Assembly (NCBI GenBank): GCA_046597065.1 | Contig: JBKJLI010000003.1 | Location: forward strand, 290,841 to 354,840 | Direction: 5' to 3' | Length of the DNA stretch: 64,000 bases | Source: Candidatus Saccharimonadia bacterium | GTDB lineage: Bacteria > Patescibacteriota > Saccharimonadia > UBA4664 > SCTI01 | Shown: one piece after another, positions 8,781-53,355 of the stretch | Layout of the letters: every line of letters starts with the position of its first letter | How positions within the stretch are numbered: the first letter of the stretch is position 1 | Position numbers and translations under genes: made by a program | Notes under the pieces: model-generated | The model's input: the letters and a program-made list of their open reading frames with translations, nothing else | Database searches by the model: none | What the model was told of the DNA's origin: nothing

Positions 8781-9158
8781 GCGGCCAGATGGCTCGCCCT
8801 AAGAGATTAACTACTGGCGCGAAGGGGCAACAAGGTTCTGTGAAACAGATGCCCCGGCCGTCGCCGGTCTGGCCTCCACCTGTTAGGACCGATAGTCGAC
8901 AGCGCTACCTGAATGGACGCCCCGGCCGTCGTCGTCCTCGTGCCCGGACCTGAAGTCCGGATAGCACTTGCCAAACTACGGTACCGGTTTGGCACCCCGA
9001 CCCCCGAGCCACGAATGGCATAGGGGTCGGGTCTTCCGCACTACTTTGTTCAAAATTCTAAATCAGATCTTGCAATACGCTTATGCTTATGATAGGTTAA
9101 AAGCATAAGCCCAGATACGATTCATCCAAGGAGGATGATTCACATGCCGGGAAGCACC

Positions 9159-9473
9159 TCAAATGGACTGCTCGTCTGCGAAGACAGAGCCTTGGATCAT
9201 GTCGGGAAGGCTCTCCCCAAGAGGATGGCTGCGGATACGCACCGCGACCGCCTCATCCCGCACCCGCTGCACCCTCGCGAGCGCGTTCGGGTGAGCGTTG
9301 CCTGCCTCGACCTCGTCACGTGCCTCCATGAGAGGAACATTCGTCATCGACGCGGTCAGGCTCCTCGCTGTGAGGTTGATGCTCTGATCGCCATCGGAGC
9401 AGATCGCCTTCTCATCGAGGCGGTTCTCGAAGTCGCGGCCTAGCACCATCTTCGCGTTTAACGCGGAAACCAC
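9159..9473 (-). CDS. Hypothetical protein (104 aa) in the high-G+C island. It overlaps completely a plus-strand ORF (9135..9443).
   Basis: GTG start preceded by gaggaggaggaa. Its amino-acid composition is protein-like, whereas the opposite-strand ORF is Arg/His-rich. Confidence 0.3.
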   Translation of the reverse strand: MVSALNAKMVLGRDFENRLDEKAICSDGDQSINLTARSLTASMTNVPLMEARDEVEAGNAHPNALARVQRVRDEAVAVRIRSHPLGESLPDMIQGSVFADEQSI

Positions 9474-14066: not shown

Positions 14067-14569
14067 TAAATTCTCAAACACCCAAATATTTGTAGCGCAT
14101 TGCTTCATTATGAAACATTTCTATATTTTCATATACTAATATTTAAGTACTTATTACACTCATAAAGCTGTGTAGAAGCTATTAGTTGGTTGTAGTTATA
14201 ACAACTGTATATAAAGCTATTTCAAAATATATTATCGAATCAGTACGACCAAACTCATCTGGATAAGCGCTTATGCTAGGCATAATCAAGATATTACTAA
14301 TCTAACTTGTCCCCAGTAATTTGCCGCCCAATTTAAACCTGTTAACAAGCTATACCTATCAGTGCTGACATCGGGCACTTTTATTACCAGTATGACTGTA
14401 TAAATAATGTGAACAATAATTATACTCAAATAATCTTGAACAATTAATTTGCATTGCGTGAACACATTAACTAAACTCTGTTTATACCGCTTATTTAAGA
14501 AAAACTTAATCTGTCGTCCATCTGGATGAATGGCTAAAAGCGGTCATGTGGTAAGGAGAATTTATAGTT

Positions 14570-15964
14570 ATGGCAGAGGTATTGCCCGATATTCAGACTT
14601 TTGCGCGCATTAAAGTGTGTGGAGTCGGCGGCGGCGGCGCATCCGCGGTCGAGAGAATGATTAAATCTAAGGTTCAGGGTATTGAGTTTGTAACCATCAA
14701 TACTGATGCTCAGTCACTGCATCATTCACATGCTCAAACCAAGATCCATATTGGTCAGAGCTTAACCCGAGGCCTGGGAGCAGGAGCAGATCCGCAAATC
14801 GGACGCAAGGCGGCCGAAGAAAACGAACAAGAAATTCGTGATGCGCTTAAGGGAACCGAGATGGTCTTTATTACGGCCGGCGAAGGTGGCGGCACCGGTA
14901 CTGGTGCCGCTCCATTGATTGCTCAGATTGCTCGCGAATCGGGGGCGCTTGTCGTGGGTATTGTTACTAAGCCCTTCACCTTCGAAGGTGAACGTCGTTC
15001 CGCACAAGCTGACAAGGGGATTGAAGAGCTAAAAGACCACGTTGATACCCTTATCACCATACCAAACGACCGCCTTCTAGATATGATCGACCGCAAAACT
15101 TCACTCCTTGATGCCTTTAAGGTGGTGGACGATGTATTGCAACAGGGTGTCCAGGGCATCTCAGATTTAATCACGGTACATGGTTTAATTAACCTCGACT
15201 TTGCCGATATTAAGTCGATCATGCAAGACGCCGGCTCGGCCCTTATGGGCATTGGCCAGGCCAAGGGCGAAAACCGCGCTCTAGAAGCCGCTAAGCAAGC
15301 TATCGACTCACCTTTACTCGAGGTTAATATTGAGGGTGCAAAGGGTGTGTTGTTTAATATCACCGGTGGGCGGAATATGAGCATGCATGAAATTGATGAA
15401 GCCGCCAAACTGATCACAGAAGCAGTTGATCCTAATGCAAATATTATATTTGGTGCGGTGCTAGATGAGGAGATGGAAGACAATATCAAGATCACCGTGG
15501 TTGCAACCGGTTTTGAAGGTGGTCGCCAGGTTTCGCGCCCTGCTATGGGTCGCACACCCGAAGTTGCGACCGAATCCATTCGTCCAACATTTCTAGACCT
15601 GGAGCCTTTACCAGACCCAGACCCAGAGCCGGTTGCCAGCCGGTTTTCTAAAGGCCCATTTATTGATGAAAAGCTTGATGACAAGCCGGCAAACCTAAGT
15701 GAACACAGTGATCTGTTCTTTGATGAGCCGTCGAAGCCCAGTGTTAACTCAATTGAACCAGAAGTATTAGAGGATGACGTCCGCAAGCCCGAGATGCATC
15801 ATGACTCAAGCCATGAAGATAAAGAGGATGCTAAAGGCGAGCCAGCCAAGAGTAAAAGCGGGGCACGCTCTTTGTTTGACCGCGCCAGCAAGGCCGTTAC
15901 CGGTCGCGGAGGTGATGACGATTTAGACGTCCCCGCCTTCATTCGCCGCCGCAAAAACAAGTAA
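14570..15964 (+). CDS. ftsZ: Cell division protein FtsZ
   Basis: [14 protein letters not shown] and [10 protein letters not shown] tubulin signature motifs, plus an acidic C-terminal tail. Confidence 0.95.
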
Positions 15965-15987
15965 AGCCTTGGCCAGGCATAACCGGC

Positions 15988-16015
15988 TTGACACCACAAC
16001 CATTAGCGTTATGAT
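15988..16015 (+). promoter_or_regulatory. Sigma70-like promoter for nrdR: TTGACA, 16 nt spacer, TATGAT. An imperfect palindrome TGTTATacATAACA follows at 16016-16029.
   Basis: Read from sequence. The palindrome immediately downstream of the -10 is a candidate autoregulatory operator. Confidence 0.4.
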
Positions 16016-16053
16016 TGTTATACATAACACTAAATGTGGGGTTTACCGTTCAA

Positions 16054-16515
16054 ATGCGCTGTCCGGATTGTGCTTATATCGACTCTCGAGTTATCGAATC
16101 ACGTGATCTCGAAGAGGGTGGGTCAATTAGACGGCGCCGTCAGTGCTTAAAGTGTAACTTTCGATTTACTACATATGAACGAGTTGAGGCCTCGCGCTTG
16201 GCTGTCATTAAAAAGGATGGCCGCCGCGAGCCATTTAATCGTGCAAAGCTGGCCAGCGGCCTGCACCGAGCAGTTGAAAAGCGGCCGGTAGCTACCGCCA
16301 AAGTCGAGGAGGTTATCGACCTTATAGAGCGTCAATTACGCAGTAGCGGCGACTCAGAGATTGAGGCTTCAAGAATTGGTGAGTTGGTCATGGCCGCTCT
16401 GTTGGAACTCGACGAAGTAGCTTATGTGCGTTTTGCCAGTGTTTACCGCTCATTTACCGATGTGGCGGCCTTTGAAACCGAACTGGCGCGTATAAAATCA
16501 CGCGGCCGGCCATGA
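16054..16515 (+). CDS. nrdR: Transcriptional repressor NrdR
   Basis: MRCPDCAY...CLKCNFRFTT zinc ribbon plus an ATP-cone. Start is set at the internal ATG 16054 rather than the track start 16015. Confidence 0.85.
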   Translation: MRCPDCAYIDSRVIESRDLEEGGSIRRRRQCLKCNFRFTTYERVEASRLAVIKKDGRREPFNRAKLASGLHRAVEKRPVATAKVEEVIDLIERQLRSSGDSEIEASRIGELVMAALLELDEVAYVRFASVYRSFTDVAAFETELARIKSRGRP

Positions 16516-16754
16516 AGTTCTAATAATTGCGGTTTAACACCGGTTCGGGGGCATTAAAACAAACATCAAAATAATGCTTTCCGAATCGGCGCTCAACCGC
16601 CGAGATGGCCTTTGACAACCAGCAGTTAGACACAAAATGCTGCATCAACCGATGGGCTTTCCGAGACGACTTTAGATAATAAAGTTGTGTCGGAAAGTCG
16701 CTAAAAGGCGATGTGGTAACCAAACACTACCGCCGCTAAAGCGGCAGGAGAACC

Positions 16755-19673
16755 ATGACCGACACTCTGGCTGCCGCATCTGTGGCAGCAACACCTGAAC
16801 CCAAGGGCATGACAGTGAAGCGTCGCTTCACCACGCCTGGGGTGCACCCGTTCGACACCGTCGAGTGGGAGTTGCGTGACGCTCGCATTGGACACGGCGA
16901 CAAGGTCGCGTTCGAGCAGAAGGGCGTCGAGTTCCCGACTACCTGGAGCCAGAACTCAACCAACATCGTGGCCCAGAAGTACTTCCGCGGTCAACTGGAC
17001 TCGCCAGCGCGAGAGCGTTCGGTGAAGCAGATGATCTCGCGAGTGGCCAACACCATTACCGAATGGGGCCATGAGCACGGATACTTCGCCACTCAGGAAG
17101 ACGGCGATGCGTTCCAGGACGAGCTGACCTACTTCCTGTTGCACCAGATGGCGGCCTTTAACAGCCCGGTCTGGTTCAATGTCGGGTTTGAAGATCAGCC
17201 GCAGTGCAGCGCCTGCTTCATCCTCAGCGTCGACGACACCCTGGATTCGATTCTGGACTGGAACACCAAGGAAGGTAAGATCTTCCGTGGTGGCTCTGGA
17301 TCGGGCATCAACCTGTCGAACATCCGCGGCTCGGTAGAGCCGTTGAGCAAGGGCGGCACGGCCTCTGGGCCGGTGTCGTTCATGCGCGGGACCGATTCTT
17401 GGGCTGGCACCATCAAGTCCGGCGGCAAGACGCGTCGGGCGGCTAAGATGGTCATCCTCGACATCGATCACCCGGATGTGGGTGAGTTCATCTGGTGCAA
17501 GGCCAAGGAAGAGGACAAGGCCGAGGCCTTGCGCGACGCCGGCTTCGACATGTCGATTGACGGCGAAGGGTTCAAGAGCATCCAGTATCAGAACGCCAAC
17601 AACTCGGTGCGTGTGAGCGATGAGTTCATGCGTGCCGTTGAGGCAGATGAGACATGGGTGCTGAAGGCGCGGGCCGATGGTTTGCCGGTAGGCGAGCCGA
17701 TTCCGGCTCGTGAGCTGATGCGTGACATCGCCAAAGCCGCCTGGCGCTGCGCTGATCCTGGTGTACAGTATGACACCGTGATCAACCAGTGGCACACCTG
17801 CCCGAAGTCTGGGCGCATCAACGCCTCGAACCCCTGCAGCGAGTACATGCATGTCGATAACTCGGCCTGCAACCTCGCCAGCCTCAACCTGATGAAGTTC
17901 CGTCAGCCGGACGGCACGCTGGACGTGGCAGCTTACGAGCATGCCATCGACATCGTGTTCATGGCTCAGGAAATTCTGGTGGGACCGTCGAGCTACCCGA
18001 CCGATGAGATCGGGATCAATGCTCGGGCGTTTCGTCAGCTTGGTATGGGGTACACCAACCTCGGCGCCTACCTGATGGCAGACGGCACTCCGTACGACTC
18101 GGATGCCGCTCGTGGAACGGCAGCGGCCCTTGCGGCGCTGATGACCGGTCGGGCCTATCGCCAGTCAGCCATGATGGCTGATGCAGTCGGCCCGTACGAG
18201 CGCTACCAGCTCAACCACGAGGGTCACATGGGTGTGATGCAGATGCATCGTGATGCGGCCCACGAGCTGCCGGATTCAGGGGTTGCGGATACGGCGTTGC
18301 ATATGGCCGCCCGTAATGCGTGGGACGATGTGGTCGAACTTGGCAACGAGTACGGCTTCCGTAACGCCCAGGCCACGGTGCTCGCGCCGACGGGGACGAT
18401 TTCGTTCCTGATGGACTGCGACACCACAGGTGTTGAGCCGGACTTCTCCTTGGTGAAGTTCAAGGAGCTGGTGGGCGGCGGTCAGATGACCATCGTTAAC
18501 CAGACGATCCCAAGTGCCCTTGCCAATCTTGGGTACACGCCCGAGCAGGTAGAGGCAATCAAGGACTACATCGAGGAGCCGATTCCGGTTGGCGAACCCG
18601 TAGATGGGGTGCAGCTGATGCAGGCTCGTGGCACCATCGTTGGTGCCCCGGGGATCAGCAAAGAGGATCTGCCGGTGTTCGATGTGGCGGTGGGTGAGCG
18701 GGCGATCGCTCCGATGGGTCACATCAAGATGATGGGCGCTGTTCAGCCCTTCATCAGTGGTGCGATCTCGAAGACGGTCAACATGCCGGCTAGCTCGACG
18801 GTCGAAGACATCTACGATGCCTACATGGATTCGTGGAAGCTCGGCGTGAAGGCACTGGCCATCTACCGCGATGGGTCTAAGACGGCCCAGGCGCTGCGCA
18901 CCGATGCGCAGTTGGGCCAGGATGGTGCGGCAGATGAGCCGTTGTTCACACAGGCTCAGGTGGATGAGTTGATCACCAAGGCCAATGGCTCAATCGGCCC
19001 GTTGCGTCGCAAGATGCCTCGGGAGCGACAGTCATTGACCCACAAGTTCACGATCGGTGGACACGAGGGTTACATCACTGCCGGCAAGTACGAGGACGGC
19101 ACGCTGGGTGAGATCTTCCTGACCGACATCGGGAAGGAAGGTTCAACCATGCGAGGGATGATGAACTCCTTCGCCACGATGGTTTCGATCGCGCTCCAGT
19201 ACGGTGTGCCGCTCGAGACTCTGGCAAGGAAGTTCAGCTACGTTCGCTTTGAGCCGGAGGGGATCACACAGAACATCGAGATCCCGTTCGCAAAGAGCAT
19301 GCCCGACTACATCATGCGTTGGTTGGCTTCGCGCTTCCTCGATCCTAGCATTCAGCTGGAATTGGGGATCAGAACGCCGGCCGCCGAAGCATTGAAGGCG
19401 GATCAAGAGGCTGCCACCAGTGTGCTGGAAACAGCTGCACCGGTGGTGAAAACTCCTGCAAAGCCGCCTGGTGCAGAGCTGGGTCCTCAGGGTTCCATTA
19501 CCCACACCGCCGCAGCTGAGGGCAATGGCAACGGAGTTCATCAGCCGGTCATGACACAACACAACGTGCAGTTGGACGCTGGCCCTCCATGCAAAATCTG
19601 TGGAGGCATGACACAGCGTTCGGGAGTCTGCTACGTTTGCTCCCAGTGCGGTGCAACAACCGGTTGCAGTTGA
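16755..19673 (+). CDS. nrdJ: Adenosylcobalamin-dependent (class II) ribonucleoside-diphosphate reductase NrdJ, with C-terminal zinc ribbon
   Basis: 972 aa with class II RNR motifs and a CxxC...CxxC C-terminus. G+C is markedly higher than in flanking genes. SD sequence aggag lies 4 nt upstream. Confidence 0.9.
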   Translation: MTDTLAAASVAATPEPKGMTVKRRFTTPGVHPFDTVEWELRDARIGHGDKVAFEQKGVEFPTTWSQNSTNIVAQKYFRGQLDSPARERSVKQMISRVANTITEWGHEHGYFATQEDGDAFQDELTYFLLHQMAAFNSPVWFNVGFEDQPQCSACFILSVDDTLDSILDWNTKEGKIFRGGSGSGINLSNIRGSVEPLSKGGTASGPVSFMRGTDSWAGTIKSGGKTRRAAKMVILDIDHPDVGEFIWCKAKEEDKAEALRDAGFDMSIDGEGFKSIQYQNANNSVRVSDEFMRAVEADETWVLKARADGLPVGEPIPARELMRDIAKAAWRCADPGVQYDTVINQWHTCPKSGRINASNPCSEYMHVDNSACNLASLNLMKFRQPDGTLDVAAYEHAIDIVFMAQEILVGPSSYPTDEIGINARAFRQLGMGYTNLGAYLMADGTPYDSDAARGTAAALAALMTGRAYRQSAMMADAVGPYERYQLNHEGHMGVMQMHRDAAHELPDSGVADTALHMAARNAWDDVVELGNEYGFRNAQATVLAPTGTISFLMDCDTTGVEPDFSLVKFKELVGGGQMTIVNQTIPSALANLGYTPEQVEAIKDYIEEPIPVGEPVDGVQLMQARGTIVGAPGISKEDLPVFDVAVGERAIAPMGHIKMMGAVQPFISGAISKTVNMPASSTVEDIYDAYMDSWKLGVKALAIYRDGSKTAQALRTDAQLGQDGAADEPLFTQAQVDELITKANGSIGPLRRKMPRERQSLTHKFTIGGHEGYITAGKYEDGTLGEIFLTDIGKEGSTMRGMMNSFATMVSIALQYGVPLETLARKFSYVRFEPEGITQNIEIPFAKSMPDYIMRWLASRFLDPSIQLELGIRTPAAEALKADQEAATSVLETAAPVVKTPAKPPGAELGPQGSITHTAAAEGNGNGVHQPVMTQHNVQLDAGPPCKICGGMTQRSGVCYVCSQCGATTGCS

Positions 19674-19799
19674 TCAATTAACAATCGTGGCCGCAGCGGG
19701 TCACGGGTATTCGTCCCATGGAACCAGGGCGATCCAAGTAAAGAAGAGGTTCCACATGTTTGGCGAGGGTGTGAAACCTATCACACCTCCGTCTGCTAG

Positions 19800-19830
19800 C
19801 GGGCCGGATGCTAACCATGCATCCGGCCCG
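19800..19830 (+). terminator. GC-rich hairpin after nrdJ (12 bp stem cgggccggatgc / gcatccggcccg)
   Basis: Perfect 12 bp inverted repeat with a 7 nt loop, at the 3' edge of the high-G+C island. Confidence 0.5.
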
Positions 19831-19879
19831 TAAAGCTTTCTAGGGCTAAAAATCTTCCCTTTTGCTATAATTGAATCAG

Positions 19880-20143
19880 ATGAAAGTTCATGTTTTATTT
19901 ACCTCAAACACTCCGCTCGACCGCGAGCTTGATCATCTGGACCAGCGCTTAAGTGAGCTGCAAGTTGATCACACTATGGTTGATGCTGATAGCCGAGAAG
20001 GCTCGGCACTTGTTGAGTTGTATGACGCTATGCAGCGCCCGAGCGTTCTCTTAACCACCGACGACGGACAGTTAGCCGAAATGTGGGCAGGTTCGCTGCC
20101 AACACCCGAAGAGCTTTCAGGCCGCTACCACTCAGGATCATGA
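19880..20143 (+). CDS. Hypothetical small protein; possibly a thioredoxin/glutaredoxin-like fold with no cysteines
   Basis: The -10 element TATAAT at 19866-19871 lies 8 nt before the ATG, so the mRNA is likely leaderless. The pattern KVHVLFT...VDAD..GSALVELYD..PSVLL.DG resembles a Grx fold but has no Cys. Confidence 0.4.
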   Translation: MKVHVLFTSNTPLDRELDHLDQRLSELQVDHTMVDADSREGSALVELYDAMQRPSVLLTTDDGQLAEMWAGSLPTPEELSGRYHSGS

Positions 20144-51990: not shown

Positions 51991-52125
51991 AAGCGTTGAA
52001 ACACAAAGGCCACGTGCTTTCAACTTAACCCCGTTCATCCAGAAAGGATGATGCCTCGTGGCAACTGACAGCAGGATGGTCGGGGGAAACTTCCTGGCCA
52101 CAACGACCACCAAGGAGAAGTGACG

Positions 52126-53355
52126 ATGCGCTCCATGCTCATCAAGCTGTTCCTGGTCGCGCTCGTCGCGGCCATCTTCACCATCCCGGCAGTGGCCTCG
52201 GCCGCTTCCACGGCACCGGTCGCTCACGCGGCTTCGTCGTACTGCGGCCCCCCGGCCATGAACAAGACCCAGTGGGTTTCGTTCTGGAGAGACCATCCGA
52301 ACTCGTCGCTCACCAAGAGCTTCGAACGGCTGGTCCGAGCGGACGCCAAGCACACCCACATCAAGAAGGATCAGACCTTCTTGTCGTGGGCTCAGTCCCC
52401 GAACATCAAGATCGTCAGGACACCGCCTGGCTACAGGCTGGATTCCAACACCTATTGCCCTGGTGGGCAGTACCAGCCGTATCCAGATCTCCTGGGCTAC
52501 GGCAACCAACTCACGCCTTCATGGTGTGAGGGTGGCGCGAAGCCGTCCACGACGGTGACGAAGGTGCAAAAGCGTGGCAAGTGGTACTACAAGTACACCA
52601 CCACTGTCACTGAGTCCTGCGCGCCTCTCGCCAAGGGATACTGCCGCAACCGGGCGACTGGGAAGTCGTTCAAGGTCGTCAAGCGCAAGGTGACGTATAA
52701 GCGCATCAAGCACAAGACGCCCAAGTGCGGCTGCAAGCCCAAGCCCAAGCCGCCGCCTGCACAGGTCAACTACTGCCCCAACGGTTCGCCGGTGGTCAGC
52801 GGTGTTGCCTGTGTCAATCAGTCTCAAGCCCAGGAGGTCAAGCAGGACTGCAAGGGTCCGAACGTTGACAGCACTCAGTGCATCAGCATTCAGATCCAGC
52901 AGCAGATCGTGTGCGGCAACGGCACGATCATCATCGGGAGCAGTACCACGACGTCGACCACTGGTGACCAGTGCAACACGGTCATCGTGGTGCCACCCCC
53001 GCCGCCGCCGGTCTGCATCCCGCCGACCACCGGTACGTACCCGAACTGTCAGGTTCCCACCTGTCCGGCGGGCACAACCGGTACCTACCCGGTCTGCAAT
53101 GCTCCGGCGGTTTGCCCCGCTGGTGACCTGCAGGCAACCGACACCACCTTGAGTGGCTTCGGTTACCGTACTGGTGACTTTCTCGGCATTGCCGGGGGGT
53201 ATTTCCAGTACTACGTTCGGGCTGATGGTTCGGGCAAGCTGTTCTTTGCGAAGGATTACACCTCGGTGCAGTCCAGTTACACGAACGGCAGCCCGATCTG
53301 TGGCAAGGCCAACCCGGCCGGCCCCGGAGGCACACCGCCTCCGCCGTCGCCGTAG
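52126..53355 (+). CDS. Secreted Cys-rich, Pro-rich protein encoded in a high-G+C island
   Basis: SD sequence aaggag lies 8 nt before the ATG. It has a signal peptide, many Cys residues, a PPPPPPP linker and strong GC3 bias. Antisense ORFs here are artefacts of the G+C content. Confidence 0.55.
   Translation: MRSMLIKLFLVALVAAIFTIPAVASAASTAPVAHAASSYCGPPAMNKTQWVSFWRDHPNSSLTKSFERLVRADAKHTHIKKDQTFLSWAQSPNIKIVRTPPGYRLDSNTYCPGGQYQPYPDLLGYGNQLTPSWCEGGAKPSTTVTKVQKRGKWYYKYTTTVTESCAPLAKGYCRNRATGKSFKVVKRKVTYKRIKHKTPKCGCKPKPKPPPAQVNYCPNGSPVVSGVACVNQSQAQEVKQDCKGPNVDSTQCISIQIQQQIVCGNGTIIIGSSTTTSTTGDQCNTVIVVPPPPPPVCIPPTTGTYPNCQVPTCPAGTTGTYPVCNAPAVCPAGDLQATDTTLSGFGYRTGDFLGIAGGYFQYYVRADGSGKLFFAKDYTSVQSSYTNGSPICGKANPAGPGGTPPPPSP

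Follow-up and report, generated by a model that had tools for sequence, protein, structure and literature searches.

In the 64,000-nt stretch of Candidatus Saccharimonadia bacterium DNA considered here (assembly GCA_046597065.1, contig JBKJLI010000003.1, positions 290,841 to 354,840 of the forward strand; this whole stretch is termed the window), the genes ftsA, ftsZ, nrdR, nrdJ, s87, yggT and ileS follow one another. The subject of this account is nrdJ, a G+C-rich gene for a class II, adenosylcobalamin-dependent ribonucleotide reductase, and the position between nrdR and s87 in which it stands (coordinates are in Table 1). The NrdJ product has the Pfam domains Ribonuc_red_2_N (PF08471, 8e-23), Ribonuc_red_lgC (PF02867, 1e-132) and TSCPD, and it scores 1378.5 bits against NCBIfam NF005122, ‘vitamin B12-dependent ribonucleotide reductase’ (cut-off 859), and 560 bits against TIGR02504 (cut-off 400). 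Its residues 358-364 form the radical-loop motif SNPCSEY, as do the aligned residues of 7b9q; the motifs CSACF and ACNLAS are also found, and the C-terminus is a Cys-rich ribbon, CKICGG...CYVCSQCGATTGCS. An earlier reading made from the letters alone (the sequence-only reading) had called it a class II nrdJ with a zinc-ribbon C-terminus, and the Pfam domains, NF005122 and the Cys-rich tail agree. Judged by these features, the window nrdJ is a class II reductase gene, presumably working and B12-dependent. No NrdB/NrdF or activase NrdG domain is present among the scanned window open reading frames (ORFs), the neighbours of nrdJ being nrdR, s87, yggT and ileS. The product of nrdR has the domains Zn_ribbon_NrdR (PF22811) and ATP-cone (PF03477) and scores 197 bits against TIGR00244 (cut-off 125); orthologues 58-87% identical to it occur in the same synteny in eight relatives.

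The affinity of the flanking IleRS places the genome in Saccharimonadia (TM7), as its best matches, at 58-75% identity, are labelled Saccharimonadales, Saccharimonadia or Patescibacteria; two matches labelled Dormibacteraeota and Nanoarchaeia look misassigned. The mean G+C of the window is 50.2%. In a 1-kb profile G+C is 0.60-0.61 across 17001-19000, and in a 300-nt profile it climbs at ~16700 and drops at ~19700-19850. The G+C of nrdJ is 0.600 and its G+C at third codon positions (GC3) 0.744; the corresponding values are 0.519 and 0.474 for nrdR, and 0.500 and 0.524 for ileS. That nrdJ is richer in G+C than nrdR and its neighbours, as had been claimed, is borne out by comparison with the 51 other window ORFs, whose GC3 has a mean of 0.496 (sd 0.035) and from which nrdJ departs by z = +7.1. 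The first and second codon positions of nrdJ (GC1 and GC2) are unremarkable in G+C, which puts the excess at silent positions, and it is uniform along the gene (0.70-0.80 per 300-nt block). It does not extend to the nrdR-nrdJ spacer, whose G+C of 0.469 takes that spacer out of the G+C-rich stretch; the 3' stretch and the hairpin after nrdJ do belong to that stretch (0.53 and 0.71).

The NrdJ of the window is 70-78% identical to proteins of Solirubrobacterales-type Actinomycetota (65-77% G+C), and 62-75% identical to the NrdJ of related Saccharibacteria. Among 5.8 billion proteins there are three matches above 74% identity, and all named matches are Solirubrobacteraceae; the contig index records no gene whose product is exactly the window NrdJ. 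Among 185,579 species genomes (one genome per species), Solirubrobacterales, Conexibacter or Paraconexibacter make up nearly all of the best 80 of 599 confirmed matches, with identities of 69-73%. The closest NrdJ sequences from high-G+C genomes are P0002 (78%, contig 70% G+C) and P0003 (77%, contig 68% G+C), on contigs of ordinary free-living gene content where the composition of nrdJ is native; that of P0002 also encodes acetyl-CoA synthetase, PHA synthase and response regulators. Taken with P0010, these lie on contigs of 68-71% G+C with an nrdJ GC3 of 0.96 and native-looking neighbours. The GC3 of donor-type nrdJ is 0.81-0.99 and that of the saccharibacterial copies is intermediate, 0.74-0.87. 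As Streptomyces and Nonomuraea NrdJ are only 51-52% identical to that of the window, the affinity is specific to Solirubrobacterales and not general to Actinomycetota. The sequence-only reading had suggested a high-G+C, plausibly actinobacterial donor; the IleRS placement, the best matches and the relatives whose site is empty (below) support this, and the matches sharpen it to Solirubrobacterales.

Tracing IleRS and NrdJ relatives to their contigs recovered eight syntenic loci, with the conserved order ftsA-ftsZ-nrdR-[slot]-s87-yggT-ileS. With the window included, six loci are filled, five with NrdJ (window, L168, L084, L167, L170) and one, L169, with a reductase of RTPR type, and three are empty (L083, L085, L166). 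These last keep the junction intact, with 20-35 nt from the end of nrdR to the TTTGCTATAAT box of s87. The NrdJ of the four relatives match no fewer than three distinct Solirubrobacterales subclades. NrdJ is G+C-rich for its genome in each filled case: GC3 is 0.744 against ~0.50 in the flanks for the window, 0.772 against ~0.51 for L084, 0.842 against ~0.48 for L167, 0.835 against ~0.59 for L168 and 0.867 against ~0.55 for L170. The RTPR-type gene of L169 is likewise G+C-rich for its genome (0.77 against ~0.60); the TIGR02505 score of its product, 338.6, is just under the cut-off of 340. Identities of FtsA, FtsZ and NrdR give the host order (window, L168), L084, the empty clade with L167, L170, L169. 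Since the two outermost host lineages both carry a reductase there, the hosts are most simply read as descending from a filled ancestor, with a single loss in the empty clade. A metagenome scan with NrdR gave 80 loci from many phyla at <=59% identity, in three of which ftsZ adjoins nrdR, and none of which has the saccharibacterial ftsZ-nrdR-[slot]-s87-yggT-ileS layout.

Atypical GC3, conflict between gene tree and organism tree (below), and presence or absence at a conserved site are marks of horizontal acquisition, and nrdJ shows all of them. With good confidence, it was taken by a Saccharimonadia lineage from a high-G+C Solirubrobacterales-type soil actinobacterium into a reductase slot under the native nrdR. 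The slot is a fixed one, between native nrdR and the native promoter of s87-yggT-ileS, and the G+C of nrdJ would have adjusted only partly, since capture, to a host genome of 50% G+C.

How many captures there were is addressed by amino-acid and silent sites, which do not tell the same story. Neighbour-joining trees of 223-224 NrdJ sequences, with 100 bootstraps, were made from the full alignment and from the catalytic core, and in both alike the five saccharibacterial NrdJ form a clade in 0/100 bootstraps. The window and L168 copies pair in 69/100, and these two group with P0002 and P0003 in 80/100; L167 groups with four Solirubrobacteraceae-type sequences, two of them named Solirubrobacteraceae, in 93/100, and the L170 NrdJ is placed elsewhere in the tree. 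Quartet site counts are 37:5:5 for window,P0002 / L167,P0273, 31:11:3 for window,P0002 / L084,P0010, 38:8:3 for window,L168 / P0002,P0003 and an ambiguous 18:14:0 for L168,P0003 / L084,P0010; the first two speak against a grouping of the saccharibacterial sequences. The rare residues 242V, 304K, 308D, 591N, 679A and 687Y are common to the window NrdJ and P0002 (most are also in L168 and P0003), and 630D, 849L and 940I are common to L167 and its tree partners. Compositional convergence would draw the saccharibacterial copies together, and the amino-acid result is therefore conservative. Clustering of the window NrdJ with relatives of similar G+C was the outcome that the sequence-only reading had held to speak against acquisition. 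The tree does pair it with the copy of its nearest relative, L168, yet acquisition is not refuted, for that copy too is rich in G+C for its genome (above) and the pair nests among sequences from high-G+C contigs.

In a codon alignment of nrdJ from the window, L168, L084, L167 and L170 against L081, L082, L171 and L079, the amino-acid signal ties the saccharibacterial copies to differing donor subclades and the silent signal ties them to one another. Silent G/C identity with the window is 0.85 for L168, 0.78 for L084, 0.75 for L167 and 0.70 for L170, which mirrors host relatedness, and the silent-site excess in nrdJ exceeds that of native genes between the same genomes. Part of it is accounted for by a common shift in codon preference following transfer (GCG, ACG and CCG to C-ending codons; GGC to GGG or GGT; GTC to GTG). 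After stratifying by amino-acid family and donor base, the excess is strong only within window/L168/L084 (z = 3.5-5.0); for pairs with L167 or L170, z is 1.1-2.8, a level that one control pair reaches too (2.8). Raw silent-site quartets and association were for this reason set aside as proof of a single origin, much of their signal being the shared codon-preference shift. A segmental mosaic or gene conversion at any resolvable scale was also rejected, since in sliding windows the nearest relative stays the same along the gene. The informative sites of the two kinds, amino-acid and silent, are mixed at random (runs tests, P = 0.60 and 0.16), and a patchwork gene thus does not resolve the conflict between them.

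Several points weigh against the acquisition history as drawn here. The trees are simple-distance neighbour-joining trees with no outgroup and no maximum-likelihood test. At four-fold sites restricted to G/C, the saccharibacterial nrdJ copies are 0.66-0.85 identical to one another and 0.54-0.66 to any sampled donor, and this silent-site conflict makes the number of separate captures uncertain. In amino acids the L084 copy leans to P0010 and P0053, in conflict with its silent sites, which lean to the window. The top donor match is no more than 78% identical, from which it follows that the true donor is unsampled. The slot shows neither a mobility gene nor flanking direct repeats nor an attachment site that would mark a route of entry. 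Finally, nrdR does not occur within 10 kb of nrdJ in donor loci, which leaves the fixed position unexplained by recombination anchored in nrdR.

Some of this would suit a single ancient capture in the common ancestor, with vertical inheritance thereafter, the links to donor subclades being tree artefacts and the empty loci losses. Such a history is unlikely. It would account for the same slot in six genomes, for homologous leader parts, and for silent G/C sites that group the saccharibacterial copies in the order of host relatedness and apart from donors; parsimony on the host tree also favours a filled ancestor. It does not account for the complete failure of saccharibacterial NrdJ monophyly in the bootstraps, nor for quartets as strongly asymmetric as 37:5:5 and 44:6:5, which random homoplasy would not give, nor for L167 and the window carrying rare residues of different donor subclades. 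The stratified silent link to L167 and L170 is weak, its upper value being reached by one control pair as well, and L169 has an unrelated reductase type in the slot. There is also the matter of age. Native four-fold sites are near saturation even between the window and L168 (identity 0.35-0.40, expected 0.26-0.29), and so old a gene should have shed its GC3 excess. The four-fold identity of nrdJ between these genomes is 0.47-0.61, with a large GC3 excess kept. Either nrdJ has been resident for less time than the genomes have diverged or its silent sites are slower. A crude relaxation estimate of our own is compatible with a shared acquisition near the window-L168 split, and with 78% as the best donor match, either no transfer was recent or the donors are unsampled.

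With moderate confidence, and on these comparisons of sequence, the window and L168 copies, and probably that of L084, would have one origin or have spread within Saccharibacteria; L167 and L170 would have separate origins, and L169 would be an unrelated replacement. At the same moderate level of confidence this would make at least three NrdJ entries and one RTPR entry into the slot. The slot, which holds NrdJ of other Solirubrobacterales affinities in L167 and L170, the RTPR type in L169 and nothing in L083, L085 and L166, would then have been refilled and emptied repeatedly, and the window nrdJ would share its origin with the L168 copy and probably with that of L084.

Recombination anchored in nrdR was considered for the constancy of position and rejected, as 0/82 donor-type loci have nrdR within 10 kb of nrdJ. 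The leaders give another hint. A 49-nt stretch is common to those of L084 and L167 (z = 6.3), and in L170 and L169 the 37 nt beside the ribosome-binding site are homologous (z = 9.1) despite unrelated reductase genes. Such shared leader parts suggest that the slot was filled ancestrally and that coding regions were exchanged inside it. The position could be kept by recombination of a resident copy with incoming homologous DNA, or by spread between Saccharibacteria via the conserved nrdR and s87-yggT-ileS flanks.

That nrdJ is instead native, a much-used gene in which selection for codon use or mRNA structure keeps GC3 high, is very improbable. All filled relatives do have a G+C-rich reductase in the slot, L169 with its RTPR-type gene among them. 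However, the translation-linked genes of the window have GC3 of 0.47-0.54 (rpsB, tsf, frr, rplU, secA and ileS are all ordinary), and GC3 in this genome is therefore not raised by high expression. The closest proteins come from another phylum, three relatives lack nrdJ, and the GC3 excess differs between genomes, as partial adjustment after transfer predicts.

Arrival by phage or plasmid, in place of direct arrival from host chromosomal DNA, has about as little to recommend it. Class II reductases are common in phages, and 1157 phage records match, but the top phage NrdJ is 46% identical to that of the window and the top match in the plasmid collection 51-52% (Streptomyces and Nonomuraea megareplicons). 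The nearest relatives are in chromosomal contexts, adjacent to tmk. No integrase, repeat or phage genes are present around the slot, no mobility gene adjoins it, and there is no tRNA in the window; the lack of mobility signatures makes nrdJ a single-gene insert and not a classical island. An actinobacterial fragment misjoined into a saccharibacterial contig can be dismissed for practical purposes: the window comes from a metagenome-style assembly, on an NCBI contig of 414,741 bp, and mislabelled bins such as L078 do occur in these collections, but the same junctions are in five independent assemblies (NCBI, JGI, ENA, Logan), the GC3 of nrdJ is intermediate and not donor-like, no sampled actinobacterial sequence exceeds 78%, and the leader element TTGA[AC]AA is common to the six filled saccharibacterial loci.

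Two observations on the donor-type sequences may be recorded. Intein domains (PF14528, PF14890) are in some Solirubrobacterales-type NrdJ (P0004, P0011 and P0322, of 1361-1369 aa), and the saccharibacterial copies are without them. L078 (CAMDBT010000014.1) is labelled a Bifidobacterium breve metagenome-assembled genome, yet it has 64% G+C and a Solirubrobacterales-type nrdJ; the contig is probably mis-binned.

Table 1. Features of the nrdR-s87 region (positions in the window unless another locus is named)
Feature	Position	Strand	Remarks
nrdR promoter-like site	15988-16015	+	TTGACA, 16 nt, TATGAT; 11/12 matches
NrdR-box-like site ACACTAAATGTGGGGT	16027-16042	+	Past the -10 element and ahead of the nrdR start codon
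nrdR	16054-16515	+	153 aa; native composition; zinc ribbon and ATP-cone
nrdR-nrdJ spacer (nrdJ leader)	16516-16754	+	Strongly folding
First exact GCTTTCCGA copy	16576-16584	+	UUUCC pairs with Shine-Dalgarno GGAGA in the minimum-energy fold
TTGACAA element	16612-16618	+	TTGA[AC]AA invariant in the leaders of 6/6 filled loci (alignment)
Hairpin	16657-16697	+	Second GCTTTCCGA copy with 8/9 inverted copy; arms 16657-16674 / 16680-16697
Small G+C hairpin CCGCCGC..GCGGCAGG	16730-16750	+	3' arm enters Shine-Dalgarno GGAG at 16747-16750
nrdJ	16755-19673	+	972 aa; class II adenosylcobalamin-dependent ribonucleotide reductase; very probably foreign
3' untranslated stretch of the insert	19674-19799	+	G+C 0.53; two further hairpins
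Perfect 12-bp G+C stem, 7-nt loop	19800-19830	+	Arms 19800-19811 / 19819-19830
TTTTGCTATAAT, extended -10 promoter for s87-yggT-ileS	19860-19871	+	Native DNA; right slot junction
s87	19880-20143	+	Conserved 87-aa ORF; first native gene past the slot
RTPR-type reductase gene in the slot of L169	L169 5208-7361		717 aa; monomeric class II type

The site ahead of nrdR, ACACTAAATGTGGGGT, matches the published NrdR-box consensus (acaCwAtATaTwGtgt) at 13/16 positions and is single, not tandem. It is the sole match in the window to ACRCTANATGTGGGGT, and the sole match to the published consensus with <=3 mismatches in this region. A box occupies the same relative place in 6/6 filled loci, one copy each with 0-1 mismatch, and in 0/3 empty ones; the distribution of the TTGAC..TAGCGKTATRRT arrangement is the same (6/6 and 0/3). 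In the empty loci nrdR overlaps ftsZ or begins <=13 nt past its end (starts at 8882 in L083, 8914 in L085 and 8965 in L166), and by comparison of these junctions the empty-locus nrdR has lost the promoter and NrdR box seen in filled loci. The sequence-only reading had looked to the nrdR-nrdJ spacer for such sites. A candidate box does exist, upstream of nrdR, and the consensus search finds none at <=3 mismatches in the spacer. With the conserved box upstream of nrdR, and no convincing terminator after it, we infer an nrdR-nrdJ operon repressed by NrdR. Transcription from the nrdR promoter would read through into nrdJ, and at high deoxynucleotide levels NrdR would bind the single putative box and shut the promoter. 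The TTGACA-like element noted earlier in the spacer was located at 16612-16617 and is kept across filled loci. Its extended form, TTGACAA, is probably the -35 box of an nrdJ-only promoter, from which a second start may add to nrdJ transcription; no good -10 box is present 16-18 nt from it.

The nrdJ leader has a minimum free energy of -71.9 kcal/mol (z = -6.3 against shuffles), and its stretch beside the ribosome-binding site shows homology with the leader of L168 (z = 5.4). The first GCTTTCCGA copy is paired, in the minimum-energy fold, with the Shine-Dalgarno sequence and start codon of nrdJ, and a folded leader whose CUUUCC segments can pair to the ribosome-binding site may modulate nrdJ translation. 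Three copies of gctttccga, one inverted, had been put forward as possible regulatory sites. Exact copies of GCTTTCCGA are in fact two, at 16576 and 16656; the inverted one, 16690-16698, matches at 8/9 and is an arm of the hairpin at 16657-16697 (18-nt arms, 89% complementary, 5-nt loop). The copies fall in an alignment gap in the sister genome L168, and are therefore lineage-specific and not conserved sites. That gctttccga is a relic of the donor motif TTCCGTCCG is likewise unsupported, alignments with the L081 and L082 leaders being non-significant (z = 0.5 and 2.6) and L168 having no copies. The arrangement of a small hairpin plus GGCAGGAG is also in L168, L170, L169 and donor-type L081 and L082, and the alignment of the L168 and L082 leaders gives z = 4.4. 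There is no Rfam match at gathering score in the window or seven related loci, and at E <= 10 nothing credible in 15950-16850 or in the L001 leader; a cobalamin riboswitch or other described leader RNA was set aside for this lack of a match.

Other leaders have features of their own. In four filled loci, at the place that corresponds to the window hairpin, very long near-perfect hairpins lie between TTGA[AC]AA and the ribosome-binding site of the reductase gene (L084 6112-6397, L167 2318-2580, L169 4942-5207, L170 4117-4328), with fold z of -3.9 to -9.5 and sequences unrelated between loci. Donor nrdJ leaders (L001-L082, ~60-200 nt upstream) share the blocks cTAAAAT, TTCCGTCCG, GAyGATGCTCGGCCC, AGTCGAGTGGGCGTC and GGCGCAGAGGAGG, of which TTCCGTCCG is in 66/80 loci against a background of 0.05 per 400 nt. 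The blocks may be an undescribed leader element; Solirubrobacterales nrdJ leaders have no Rfam match, and RNAalifold found no covariation in them despite the conserved blocks.

At the right edge, the 12-bp stem begins 127 nt past the nrdJ stop and ends 29 nt ahead of the TTTTGCTATAAT box. The stem probably terminates nrdJ and marks where the insert ends on the right; a terminator scan did not call it, and the T-run after it is weak. Hairpins of comparable G+C directly precede the TTTGCTATAAT box of L084 and that of L167, and in L170 a comparable one follows nrdJ. What had been described as a 12 bp GC palindrome is indeed a perfect inverted repeat, with its arms split by a 7-nt loop. A 60-aa ORF at 19651-19833 has no family match and is probably spurious. 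An extended -10 box of TTTGCTATAAT type is in the window and in 6/7 s87-bearing relatives (L084, L167, L169, L083, L085 and L166; L170 is without a clear one). Orthologues of s87, of 84-87 aa and with no cysteine, are in every relative except L168, whose contig ends just past nrdJ; s87 has no Pfam or NCBIfam match.

Elsewhere in the window there is a second compositional outlier, a 411-aa ORF at 52120-53355 (+) with G+C 0.619 and GC3 0.80 (z = +8.8). It has a signal-peptide-like start, is rich in Cys, Pro and Thr, matches neither a Pfam nor an NCBIfam family, and may likewise be foreign. The ftsA-ftsZ spacer (14067-14569, ~500 nt) has G+C of 0.31-0.35, well under the genome average. A patch at 9135-9473, between a transglycosylase gene and a HIT gene, has G+C 0.62 and ORFs overlapping on both strands with no family match.

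The NrdJ enzyme family requires adenosylcobalamin. No B12 uptake or adenosylation genes are present among the scanned ORFs of the 64-kb window. As the slot of L169 holds a different B12-dependent reductase, B12 dependence seems to be a trait of the group and older than this nrdJ. The window organism is probably tiny and host-dependent. Reduced genomes of this kind appear to keep their own deoxynucleotide synthesis, and would depend for it on B12 probably obtained from outside.

Uptake of host DNA is the likely route of entry; recombination in the conserved flanks may then have spread the gene between Saccharibacteria. A further step is tentative and more doubtful than the capture itself: the slot may be a recurrent capture site at which soil and freshwater Saccharimonadia swap their B12-dependent reductase for the version of their current hosts, and, all captured NrdJ being of Solirubrobacterales type, the gene would then mark Solirubrobacterales (Thermoleophilia) as hosts. 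We know of no Solirubrobacterales host association of this Saccharimonadia group shown by culture. The hosts of environmental Saccharibacteria are mostly unknown, and a gene captured repeatedly from one actinobacterial order gives a testable host hypothesis. Host guesses from gene transfer have been called unvalidated speculation (PMC11659515), and the lack of transfer evidence between cultured pairs has been noted (PMC8406219).

No paper on nrdJ transfer into Saccharibacteria was found in the literature searched, and the systems that may be compared with the present one are of several kinds. The nearest in sequence is the NrdJ of Solirubrobacterales itself (NF005122 / PRK06556, dimeric-type class II). 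It has the full-length architecture of the window protein at 70-78% identity, and both have SNPCSEY, the TSCPD domain and the CxxC...CxxC tail. The window copy differs in being in a genome of 50% G+C, with GC3 down from ~0.95 to 0.74, in the divergence of its C-terminal linker and tail, in faster amino-acid change than in the donors, and in following nrdR directly. Among solved structures, the catalytic barrels of 7b9q/7b9p (925 aa) and Thermotoga maritima NrdJ 1xje align with the window NrdJ (E = 1.5e-159 and 7e-53), the NPCSE loop being kept; the solved class II chains lack, or differ in, the TSCPD and Cys-rich C-terminal region, and no structure matched the tail of the window NrdJ subfamily.

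In arrangement the closest counterpart is in Streptomyces, where nrdR and nrdJ reportedly form an operon with an NrdR box at the promoter ahead of nrdR, by which NrdR would control both genes. As there, nrdR in the window is immediately upstream of nrdJ, with a candidate NrdR box ahead of nrdR. In the window, however, nrdR is native and nrdJ foreign on the reading preferred here, Streptomyces NrdJ is ~52% identical, the box is single and not a tandem pair, and the operon is deduced from sequence. Horizontal transfer and replacement of ribonucleotide reductase genes are in general well known. The present case shares with such transfers an essential gene, a phylogeny at odds with the organism and atypical composition; it differs in having a reduced-genome Patescibacteria recipient, donors in one actinobacterial order and reuse of the same intergenic slot. 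Reductase gene transfer is thus known in kind. What is of interest is that one slot has been used repeatedly, in a case made unusually clean by relatives with an empty site, by a composition only partly adjusted to the host, by a donor order that can be named and by a native regulator that has stayed where it was.

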